Positions 473-6,267 of a stretch of 6,267 bases of DNA are shown one piece after another. Numbering within the stretch: position 1 is the first letter of the stretch; each line of letters begins with the position of its first letter. This DNA comes from a virus, in UHGV virus genome UHGV-1290421; one strand, 5' to 3'. The notes under the pieces are model-generated. The model did not search any database. It was given only the letters and a program-made list of their open reading frames with translations, and was not told where the DNA came from. Made by a program: the position numbers and the translations under genes.

Positions 473-679
473 TTAACCAGTCTTTGAGATAGATGATTTT
501 TCCAGCTTACTCTTCTGTTCTGTCCGGTTCTGCTGGGCTTCAAAATTTTTGATATAGTTTTCGATTATTATACTTCCCATTTGGCTTATGCTTCTTTTGT
601 CTTGTTCTGCTATATCCTTTAATTTTTGATAAATGTTTTCGTCTAATATAATTTGTACTTTGGGTTTTTTTGTTGGCAT
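473..679 (-). CDS. Ribbon-helix-helix (CopG/Arc/MetJ-like) transcriptional repressor, 68 aa.
   Basis: ATG at 679..677 with GAGGAGA RBS (684-690 on +) at 4 nt spacing. N-terminal beta-strand then two helices (KPKVQIILDENIYQKLKDIAEQDKRSISQMGSIIIENYIK) is typical of RHH DNA-binding domains. It is transcribed divergently from the structural operon. Confidence 0.7.
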   Translation of the reverse strand: MPTKKPKVQIILDENIYQKLKDIAEQDKRSISQMGSIIIENYIKNFEAQQNRTEQKSKLEKSSISKTG

Positions 680-693
680 AATTTCTCCTCAAA

Positions 694-765
694 AAAGGGA
701 TTGACGGTTAATCCCCTCATGTGATATACTGAGGGTATTCCAGGGGAGTAACCTTTAATCCCCGA
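694..765. promoter_or_regulatory. Two related inverted repeats (candidate operators for the RHH repressor) overlapping the -35 and lying just downstream of the -10.
   Basis: GGGA-N11-TCCCC (697-716, includes the -35) and GGGGA-N11-TCCCC (743-763). Both carry the right half-site TTAATCCCC (708-716 and 755-763), with centres about 47 bp apart. Confidence 0.35.
701..730 (+). promoter_or_regulatory. Sigma70-type promoter with extended -10, driving the gV/gVIII operon.
   Basis: TTGACG (701-706), 18-nt spacer, TGaTATACT (722-730; TATACT is 5/6 to consensus, with a TG extension). First + gene RBS lies at 1047. Confidence 0.5.
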
Positions 766-1059
766 ATGTCAAAGTGGTTGTTGTAGGTGCATTGGTAACC
801 TTCCGAAAATCTGAGTCATTCCGAATAGGTGTAGGGGTACAACTATTTTACCATGATTTCAGATTTTTGTACATACTGGCTGAGGAAACAGCTATCCGTG
901 TAAGTCGGTATATCTGTTCGGTGTTTAAGAAGTCTCCGGCCGTGCCATATCAGCGGTAAAGTGGTATGGATGTTCTGGACACAATTCCAGAGGGGAGATA
1001 TTTTCCTGTATCTCCTGTTAGATATTTGAATACTGGTTGAATGGTTAAGGAGGTATGTT

Positions 1060-1308: not shown

Positions 1309-1599
1309 GTGAAGTTGTATCAGTCTTTGAAAAAGTATGGCACTCTCCCGGTCGCTACTGGTCTTATGGCAGTTTCATCTTTTCCGGCTTTGGCATCCGA
1401 AGCTGGGGCCACTGTCACATCCACGGACTGGGCGCCTATCATTTCAGCTATGACGGGTCAGATATCCGTGTCGACGGTAGTGGGTGTGATTGCTACAGCT
1501 ATCGGTGCCGGCATCGGCCTGGTGTTCATGTGGTGGGGCGGTCGCAAGGCAGTCCGTACACTTATGTCAGCATTCCGTAAAGGTAAGGTGTCCATGTAG
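1309..1599 (+). CDS. pVIII-like major coat protein precursor (96 aa; signal peptide of about 29 aa, mature about 67 aa).
   Basis: GTG start at 1309 with AAAGGAGG (1294-1301) at 7 nt spacing. Signal peptide ends in AxA (FPALA|SE). Mature protein has an acidic/polar N-terminus, a hydrophobic core (VVGVIATAIGAGIGLVFMWW) and a basic C-tail (RKAVRTLMSAFRKGK), the classic inovirus coat architecture. A strong terminator follows immediately. Confidence 0.7.
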   Translation: MKLYQSLKKYGTLPVATGLMAVSSFPALASEAGATVTSTDWAPIISAMTGQISVSTVVGVIATAIGAGIGLVFMWWGGRKAVRTLMSAFRKGKVSM

Positions 1600-3675: not shown

Positions 3676-3722
3676 TGCTTACTGATTACTAGACTTTCGC
3701 GAATAGTTGGAGGTATTACTCT

Positions 3723-5377: not shown

Positions 5378-5419
5378 ATGGCTGCCGGAACCGCACCAGC
5401 GGTGCGGTCCGGTAGCCAT
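5378..5419 (+). other. GC-rich imperfect hairpin in the rep-proximal intergenic region. Candidate replication origin or packaging-signal element.
   Basis: Left arm ATGGCTGCCGGAACCGCACC (5378-5397), loop AGC, right arm GGTGCGGTCCGGTAGCCAT (5401-5419). That gives about 19 bp with one wobble and one bulged A. No T-run follows, so it is not a canonical terminator. It lies 50 nt upstream of the Rep RBS in an otherwise AT-rich spacer. Confidence 0.4.
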
Positions 5420-5471: not shown

Positions 5472-6267
5472 ATGGAACCGTATAATGTCAAGATAATCAC
5501 TTATCCTGACCTTACAAAACAGTATCGTATTTATCATAATACGATTGGTACGGATGATTTAAGTATTCCTGTACGGCCTCATAAGAAGGGGGAACGGAAT
5601 CCATTTGACGGTAAGGTTTGTAAGGAAATATTGGTTGATATAAAGGATTATAAAAATCATGTGGATGATGTAAGTATAAAAAGAACAAAGAAAAAGGTCT
5701 ATGATTATGCCAAATCAAATGAATGGGAATGGTTTGTCACTTTTACTTTCAGTCCTGATAAAGTGAATCGTTATGATTATGATGAATGTACAAAGTATCT
5801 TAGTAAATGGTTTAATAATCTAAAACGTTCCTCTCCTGCTCTCTCCTATCTGGTTGTTCCTGAACAACATAAGGATGGCGCATATCATTTTCATGGATTA
5901 TTTAGTGGGATGAATGAACGTCAGATAGTATGGACTGGTAAGTATGTTATAAAGCGTGTCCGTGGGCTTAGAAGTAAGTTTGTTCGTACGAAAGAAAAGA
6001 TATATAAGATAGGCAGTTATAAGTTGGGTTGGATGACGGCTACAAGGGTTCGTGAGATGGAAAAGGTCACGTCCTACATAACAAAGTACATCACGAAAGA
6101 TATGTTGAACGGTCTGCATGGTAGAAAACGTTATTGGTGTTCCAGGAATTTGGTTTTGCCTTTGGAAGAGGTTTTTATCCTGGATGCCACAGACCGGTTC
6201 ATTCTGTCCCAGGAACTGGATGACAGTTCAAGGTTCAAGAAGGTTTCGCAAGTGTGTTATGGGGACA
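5472..6267 (+). CDS. Rolling-circle replication initiator (HUH endonuclease, superfamily I two-tyrosine type, as in phiX174 gpA / Microviridae VP4). 3' partial, 265 codons in the window.
   Basis: ATG 5472 with GGGGGAAA RBS. Motif I is FVTFTF. Motif II is YHFHGLF (HxH). Motif III is YITKYITK (Y-x-x-K-Y-x-x-K). The ORF is open to the window end and is absent from the supplied track because no stop was reached. Confidence 0.85.
   Translation, partial: MEPYNVKIITYPDLTKQYRIYHNTIGTDDLSIPVRPHKKGERNPFDGKVCKEILVDIKDYKNHVDDVSIKRTKKKVYDYAKSNEWEWFVTFTFSPDKVNRYDYDECTKYLSKWFNNLKRSSPALSYLVVPEQHKDGAYHFHGLFSGMNERQIVWTGKYVIKRVRGLRSKFVRTKEKIYKIGSYKLGWMTATRVREMEKVTSYITKYITKDMLNGLHGRKRYWCSRNLVLPLEEVFILDATDRFILSQELDDSSRFKKVSQVCYGD

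Follow-up and report, generated by a model that had tools for sequence, protein, structure and literature searches.

An Enterocloster bolteae inovirus carries a ribbon-helix-helix gene and paired inverted repeats in a variable cassette predicted to control immunity

The RHH gene, the rightward promoter and its paired repeats

The UHGV virus genome UHGV-1290421, analysed here as a single stretch of 6,267 nt (the window), represents a complete inovirus genome in circularly permuted form, and the subject of this report is a short region in it, positions 473 to 776, that contains a gene for a 68-amino-acid (aa) ribbon-helix-helix (RHH) protein, a strong rightward promoter on the opposite strand, and two related inverted repeats, the operator candidates O1 and O2, placed over and just beyond that promoter (Table 1). 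The region is likely to control immunity or chronic infection in a 6.3-kb filamentous phage of Enterocloster bolteae, a view that rests on sequence comparisons and in which the RHH protein is predicted to bind the repeats and repress the promoter. The original prediction, made from the letters alone, had described an Arc/CopG-like open reading frame (ORF), the promoter TTGACG-18-TGaTATACT and two repeats, one over the -35 hexamer and the other around the transcript start; all of these are present where it placed them, with the second repeat at about +6 to +26.

Table 1. Features of the control region and neighbouring genes; coordinates are those of the 6,267-nt window
Feature	Coordinates	Strand	Description	Basis
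RHH gene (putative repressor)	473-679	-	68 aa	ORF list, RHH evidence
Ribosome binding site (RBS) of the RHH gene	685-690	-	GAGGAG	Direct reading
Rightward promoter	701-730	+	TTGACG (701-706), 18 nt, TG (722-723), TATACT (725-730)	Consensus match
Operator candidate O1	697-715		GGGATTGA-CGG-TTAATCCC; over the -35 hexamer and the first half of the spacer
Operator candidate O2	743-763		GGGGAGTAA-CCT-TTAATCCCC; inverted copy of O1; about +6 to +26
Variable (putative immunity) cassette	544-776		RHH domain, RBS, promoter, O1, O2	Four-way alignment, type catalogue
Block common to all cassette types	778-873			Alignment
Candidate RHH promoter	845-873	-	TGTACA (873-868), 17 nt, TGgTAAAAT (853-845)	Consensus match
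Coat-like protein	1309-1599		PHROG 2186
Zot-like assembly ATPase	1652-2320

The 68-aa protein belongs to the RHH fold family. It matches an Arc-like repressor family in PHROGs (5e-5), and of its 17 homologues, 16 match Pfam family RHH_5 (best 1e-7), seven match RHH_1 (to 4.6e-6), and three match Arc (2.4e-8). A profile of the family matches EndoAI, CopG-family regulators, ORF56, CopG and Arc in the PDB, the Arc matches being weak (E = 0.1-1), and hhalign pairs it with the CopG sequence at 88% probability (E = 2.8e-6). The AlphaFold2 model (pLDDT 83.6) consists of an extended N terminus (residues 1-13) and helices at 14-26 and 31-64, with lower confidence after residue 50; RHH proteins account for nearly all of the top 50 Foldseek matches in the PDB, with CopG-DNA complexes at the head of the list and CopG 1b01 (TMt 0.82, root mean square deviation 1.4 Å, 34% identity over 41 residues) as the best match. 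The window protein has no helix-turn-helix (HTH) matches. The RHH membership proposed at the outset is thus borne out by the homologues in Pfam and by the agreement on CopG of profile, hhalign and Foldseek comparisons.

In the hhalign register, residues K7, Q9 and I11 align with R4, T6 and T8 of CopG, which are outward-facing positions of its ribbon. The predicted β-αA-αB DNA-binding domain occupies codons 1-46 (542-679), and codons 47-68 (473-541, EAQQNRTEQKSKLEKSSISKTG) form a C-terminal tail. Four related loci (L005, L038, L025 and L026) have frameshifted or hybrid RHH tails, for example one ending in VIYLKDWLKKLMKKRSSTRCSAGRRIP, and this segment, which lies at a cassette junction described below, appears to be prone to rearrangement.

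The element at 701-730 is the best plus-strand promoter match in the window (10/12 plus an extended -10), with a predicted start at about 737, and the RHH start codon lies 21 nt from its -35 hexamer. Both repeats can be read as originally described, as GGGA(697-700)-N11-TCCCC(712-716) and GGGGA(743-747)-N11-TCCCC(759-763), each ending in TTAATCCCC (708-716 and 755-763). A repeat search reports the two sites as a 26-nt direct repeat (697-722/744-769, 77% identity, 47 nt apart), as a 21-nt inverted repeat (697-717/742-762, 86%), and, for the first site, as a self-palindrome (697-705/707-715). The reading that accommodates both is a 19-bp palindrome of two 8-nt arms separated by 3 nt, GGGAkTrA-N3-TTAATCCC, in which the arms are complementary at 7 of 8 positions; the two sites are centred at 706 and 753, and within each the half-site centres are 11 bp apart. 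From centre to centre O1 and O2 are 47 bp apart, which puts the midpoint of the pair (729.5) at the 3' edge of the -10 hexamer.

These sites are rare in the genome. Five palindromes of this form (at least 7/8 complementarity) occur in the 6,267 nt, and only O1 and O2 fit the 16-position consensus with no more than one mismatch, the next best having four; none of 500 first-order Markov shuffles contained two similar palindromes within 80 nt. There is no other operator-like site in the genome, including near rep, and the rightward promoter would therefore be the only target. A manual reading found no Firmicute LexA (Cheo) box. As for the description of 701-730 as a structural-operon promoter, the operon starts with a 77-aa gene, and the promoter may drive the main rightward transcription unit, extending beyond the structural genes alone.

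A variable cassette in related phages

About 40 related loci were fetched via RHH homologues, the ATPase, and a 25-nt conserved motif that lies beside the control region. A four-way alignment of phages of types A, B, C and D (Table 2), which are 87-97% identical overall, is near-identical (95-100%) at 378-543 and 778-873, and nothing can be aligned across ~544-776. This 233-nt cassette contains RHH codons 1-46, the RBS, the rightward promoter and both repeats, and its left junction (~543/544) coincides with the end of the RHH domain; the C-terminal tail, beyond the junction, is common to all types. The functional unit, drawn originally as 473-765, is accordingly redrawn as ~544-776. There are at least five cassette types among the ~40 loci, and near-identical phages with different cassettes occupy the same attachment (att) site.

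Table 2. Cassette types, DNA-facing residues predicted for the RHH protein, and associated repeat sequences
Type	Loci	Residues 7/9/11	Repeat sequence
A	Window, L007, L008, L010/11	K-Q-I	GGGAkTAA / TTAATCCC
B	L005, L006, L009, L019 and others	R-Q-I	GTGAGTAAC
C	L012, L013, L032	Q-K-Y	AGTGGTACCACT
D	~15 loci including E. aldenensis	R-T-R	GGTGACGTCACC
E	Agathobacter metagenome-assembled genome (MAG), L023	L-K-Y	AGTGGkmCCACT

The repeats covary with the residues aligned to the CopG ribbon. Proteins with K/R-Q-I at positions 7, 9 and 11 are paired with GGGATTAA or GTGAGTAA, those with R-Q-I being paired with GTGAGTAA; types A and B differ at position 7 alone among the three, and their half-sites differ mainly at one base. 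Types C and E have K9 and Y11 in common and near-identical operators. The four type A lineages (the window, L007, L008 and L010) are only 59-71% identical in protein sequence and their surrounding DNA has diverged, but all keep the GGGAkTAA-type half-site; L010 has a different Rep family and gene order, and O1 is identical in L007 despite its diverged surroundings. This is the pattern expected if the ribbon reads the repeats.

The geometry is also common to the types. Across nine representatives the best promoter match in the rightward direction consists of TTGAC(A/G) or TTTACA, a 17- or 18-nt spacer and TAnnnT, usually with TGn, and the equivalent rightward promoter is the top match in all eight lineages examined. 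In the same representatives, repeat 1 is in the -35/spacer region and its inverted copy, repeat 2, follows the start by ~5-30 nt, with the dyad midpoint 0-2 nt after the -10 hexamer. Centre-to-centre distances between O1 and O2 are 47, 45, 47, 48.5, 34.5, 34 and ~33.5 bp, roughly multiples of 11.3-11.8 bp. Among 12 distinct type D sequences the operator cores ATTGACAAAGTGACGTCACC and GGTGACGTCACTTTGTCA are invariant, and 6 of the 8 nt after the -10 hexamer vary, together with two positions inside the hexamer itself; the repeats are therefore kept more strictly than the promoter, the reverse of the outcome that would have told against the original prediction. As to whether the repeats would be conserved in relatives, a question raised by the original prediction, they are thus retained where the DNA-binding residues are retained and replaced where the residues change.

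The slot is not confined to RHH genes. In L045 (2340-2660) and L046 (2550-2860), whose ATPase is 87% identical, an Xre-type HTH repressor lies in the same position, with three AGCATATTTT direct repeats in the L045 slot, and the slot therefore accepts non-homologous repressors.

Promoter arrangement, predicted repression and alternatives

The source of RHH transcription was taken originally to diverge from the rightward promoter. The RHH gene does lie on the strand opposite the rightward operon, but its best promoter candidate (873-845) faces the rightward promoter from within the flank common to all types. With its start predicted at ~838, the leader would be ~159 nt long and run across both O2 and O1. 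The top RHH-direction promoter is likewise 140-210 nt upstream of the start codon and beyond repeat 2 in 7 of 8 lineages, among them L023, whose TTGTCA-17-TGaTATAAT is independent. No back-to-back RHH promoter is seen in the cassette, where the RHH strand of types A to D has no acceptable -10, and on manual reading a TTGACA at 772-767 is without a partner hexamer. Because the 21-nt gap has neither space for an RHH promoter nor a match to one, and the best candidate is beyond repeat 2, the promoters are probably face-to-face and not divergent; the fuller arrangement, in which the two predicted promoters converge with ~100 nt of overlap (starts ~737 and ~838) and the RHH protein acts on its own leader, is tentative, with a chance slightly short of even.

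The conserved block that contains this candidate includes the 25-nt motif GGTTGTTGTAGGTGCATTGGTAACC (778-802), which is kept even in the Agathobacter MAG (L023) and has a recognisable version in L010, and a plus-strand hairpin at 804-869; the block may act as RHH promoter, as complementary-strand origin or in both roles. Between the block and the 77-aa gene, 874-1031 is variable, being absent in L015 and replaced by a region with a 40-aa ORF in L009 and L016. A 61-aa ORF with a GTG start (774-959) is probably not a gene, since it lacks an RBS and a family match. In the RHH-sense RNA, the complement of O2 and O1 forms a hairpin followed by U6 just before the RBS, resembling a terminator or attenuator; such an element in the leader (691-762, minus strand) was rejected, as the U-run is found only in the window's type and the folding of the leader is no better than that of shuffles (z = -0.95).

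These features are consistent with the following mechanism. The RHH protein would dimerize and place a two-stranded antiparallel β-ribbon in the major groove of the half-sites GGGAkTrA / TTAATCCC, with K7, Q9 and I11 predicted to face the DNA. Occupancy of O1 would block RNA polymerase at the -35/spacer region and occupancy of O2 would hinder promoter clearance; with both occupied, the rightward promoter would be off, and with it the 77-aa gene, the coat gene, the Zot-like ATPase gene and the genes downstream. The symmetric placement of O1 and its inverted copy O2 on either side of the -10 suggests a single cooperative complex, formed by bridging or spreading, and the long C-terminal helix (31-64) perhaps adds oligomerization, as does the Mnt coiled coil. 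If the RHH gene is transcribed from 873-845, the two promoters would fire at each other across ~100 nt, and the facing promoters, with the RHH protein acting on its own leader, would produce mutual interference and negative autoregulation. Joint exchange of the RHH domain and operators between otherwise near-identical phages makes it most likely that each cassette type corresponds to a heteroimmune group, within which a resident phage would confer superinfection immunity.

Several observations weigh against this reading. The window protein itself scores 19.6 bits against Pfam RHH_5, below the cut-off of 26 (E = 7.8e-4), and, being short, it has weak Foldseek E-values (0.03); the β-strand is not formed in the AlphaFold2 monomer, as is expected of an obligate dimer but is not proof of one. 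The O1-O2 spacing varies between types, with no single helical phasing, and the covariation of protein and repeats could come in part from the physical adjacency of the cassette parts. The RHH promoter assignment consists of consensus matches only, and L008 has a different best candidate. Two further observations concern single-stranded DNA: plus-strand DNA at 690-770 folds with -14.8 kcal/mol (z = -3.75, with 0 of 200 shuffles as good), and the plus-strand mispairs between the two repeats are G·T in 10 cases and A·C in 3, a bias that a duplex-operator model does not predict.

These last two observations raise the alternative that the O1/O2 pair is mainly a hairpin in the packaged plus-strand single-stranded DNA, or a cruciform or RNA structure, serving as complementary-strand origin, packaging signal or structural element, with the RHH protein unrelated or secondary. 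An O1:O2 stem of 9-24 bp with a loop of 15-25 nt containing the -10 can be drawn in every cassette type, and in the type B phages L005 and L006 pairing is kept through one C-G to T-A double change (in L005) and wobble changes. Each repeat is, however, itself palindromic (in types C and D as a perfect 12-mer, in type A with 7/8 arms), which an O1:O2 hairpin does not need; the repeat sequence tracks the DNA-facing RHH residues across lineages with unrelated flanks (for example L010 and L023); and repeat position is locked to the -35 and -10 in every type. The 10:3 ratio is a weak bias, with a one-sided p of ~0.05, and comes from variants that are not independent of one another. A search of Rfam at E ≤ 1 found no RNA family. 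As a replacement for the operator role the hairpin is improbable. The two roles are mutually compatible, and the G·T bias and the L005 double change hint at selection on a plus-strand hairpin, which is possible as an additional role. One combination, which we regard as an outside chance, is that the hairpin in packaged DNA recreates a duplex operator by which the resident RHH protein recognises incoming genomes of its own type before the replicative form is made, or that it doubles as an origin or packaging element; if so, the 233-bp cassette would set both repression specificity and specificity at the single-strand stage.

A second alternative leaves the binding sites as they are and changes their purpose: the RHH protein would be a copy-number or replication regulator similar to CopG or omega, or a homeostatic brake on chronic production, with no part in lysogeny maintenance or superinfection exclusion. 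The CopG, omega and RepB-regulator families are among its matches, the RHH gene in L010/L011 is divergent from an 81-aa gene and the Rep operon, and an RHH protein of phage PMBT54 (ORF13) has been proposed to act in episome maintenance (PMC10534721). The related phages are moreover secreted continuously from lysogens (PMC10061712), and repression would therefore be leaky. In the window, however, the RHH gene is not co-transcribed with rep, which is distant and on the opposite strand (5472, wrapping to 41), and the co-transcription with and autoregulation of a rep operon that characterize CopG are not found. Exchange of repressor-operator cassettes between near-identical phages at the same att site is instead the pattern of immunity regions, as for rstR of CTXphi (PMC7326730), and a pure copy-number brake hardly explains such diversifying selection; we consider this alternative unlikely.

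The remaining one, that the RHH protein is an antitoxin paired with a 49-aa membrane ORF downstream on the same strand (268-417, minus) and that the repeats are its autoregulatory operator, draws on the RHH antitoxins among the best matches (EndoAI/MazE, CopA-SO, FitA and ParD), on the hydrophobic character and strong RBS of the ORF, and on the conserved C-terminal tail, which could be a toxin-binding segment, but it is very improbable and was rejected, as the ORF has no family match and is not conserved (it is absent from the type D loci L015 and L016, which keep the RHH gene and tail), the repeats flank a promoter directed away from the RHH gene, and a hairpin (432-457) lies between the two genes. 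This hairpin has a T-run on the plus strand only, and the 49-aa ORF overlaps the 3' end of a convergent 82-aa membrane ORF (76-324, plus).

Prophage state and relation to known systems

The phage is a prophage of E. bolteae: 202 contigs of this species, up to 881 kb, carry a protein identical to the 68-aa ORF, and in L001 to L004 direct repeats of 21 nt, ACTAGACTTTCGCGAATAGTT (window 3688-3708), bound the phage integrated in the chromosome. The phage genome has no integrase gene, and XerCD integration is unsupported, because on manual comparison the att repeat is unlike the 28-bp dif site. An inverted AACTATTCG precedes the 21-nt repeat by 16 nt on the attL side. The rolling-circle Rep matches REP_ORF2-G2P (E = 1e-13) and PHROG 3419 (2e-22); its ORF (5472-6267) runs off the end of the window and continues at 1-41, and the end-to-start junction is contiguous in integrated copies such as that of L001. 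Just upstream of rep, at 5378-5419, is a strong GC-rich hairpin without a T-run (-22 kcal/mol, z = -4.15), which may act as origin, packaging signal or terminator. Directly adjoining the phage at the same chromosomal site is a second Zot-encoding inovirus-like prophage, unrelated to the first, and the result is a tandem array (L002, 11336-16207; L003, 11359-16207; L012, 10363-14207). No fetched locus has two RHH genes, and co-residence of different cassette types was not seen among them.

Against annotated phages, blastn of the whole window gave only weak (~72%) matches to the ATPase and coat regions of porcine and rodent gut 'Inovirus sp.', with the control region unmatched, and tblastn of the RHH protein against the same collection gave no match. 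The integrated element was published in 2023. Enterocloster inoviruses of the same group are reported to be secreted in vitro and in mice, and few other filamentous phages have been shown to be secreted by Gram-positive gut commensals; the study does not analyse operators or immunity (PMC10061712). Earlier inovirus annotations also include RHH ORFs (PMC10061712; PMBT54 ORF13, PMC10534721), and no operator or immunity analysis of them was found in the literature searched.

The functionally closest system, by analogy, is the rstR and operator region of CTXphi. Both phages are temperate and filamentous, with a small repressor gene divergent from the operon that it controls, or here is predicted to control, and in both the repressor and operator region is highly divergent while the remaining genome is conserved, which in CTXphi gives rise to immunity types (PMC7326730). 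The RstR-like lysogeny-switch layout of the original prediction is thereby supported, with the phage integrated in E. bolteae chromosomes and the cassette divergence of the RstR kind. There are also clear differences: RstR is an HTH protein and the protein described here, an RHH protein, would be RstR-like in function but not a member of that family; the host is a Gram-positive member of the Lachnospiraceae and not Vibrio cholerae; the operon consists of a 77-aa gene followed by coat and assembly genes, where CTXphi has rstA and rstB; and in contrast to CTXphi, no LexA-type site is seen and no RstC-like antirepressor was identified in the present phage.

Other likenesses are partial. Arc and Mnt of phage P22 are RHH repressors with operators of ~21 bp composed of two half-sites ~11 bp apart, and the Arc operator lies between the -35 and -10 of Pant, where Arc blocks polymerase, a position that O1 resembles; the helical oligomerization domain at the C terminus of Mnt resembles the predicted long helix at 31-64. 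Arc and Mnt, however, have an antirepressor as their target, and neither is the main immunity repressor of its phage; each has a single operator in place of an inverted pair bracketing the -10, and the sequence similarity of the present protein to Arc is weak. CopG of plasmid pMV158, the best structural match, and omega of pSM19035 bind pseudo-symmetric or repeated elements overlapping a promoter and multimerize along the DNA. CopG is co-transcribed with repB and autoregulates, whereas the present gene is on the strand opposite to both the regulated operon and rep, and its product has an extra, conserved 22-residue tail. Coliphages 186 and P2 have face-to-face promoter switches, with repressors (186 CI and P2 C) that are not RHH proteins; if the promoter at 873-845 is real, the converging lytic-type and repressor promoters predicted here, with ~100 nt of overlap and the repressor acting at the rightward one, would be a further example.

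Cassettes of a repressor and its operators that determine immunity are already known as a kind, and the present one is well defined and will not surprise a specialist. Secretion levels vary between strains with near-identical Enterocloster phages, and an 'omega regulatory protein' ORF is among the few genes that differ between them (PMC10061712); the predicted control module, as one of the few regions that differ, is an obvious candidate for the control point behind these differing levels. If the cassette types are heteroimmune groups, they would extend the CTXphi-style concept of heteroimmunity to inoviruses of Gram-positive bacteria and to a different DNA-binding fold. The system is compact for testing, with 19-bp sites, three residues and five natural specificity classes; the natural RHH-operator pairs, at least five in number, are a ready-made specificity-swap series for the RHH recognition code, and the same cassettes could provide orthogonal repressor-operator parts for use in Clostridia.

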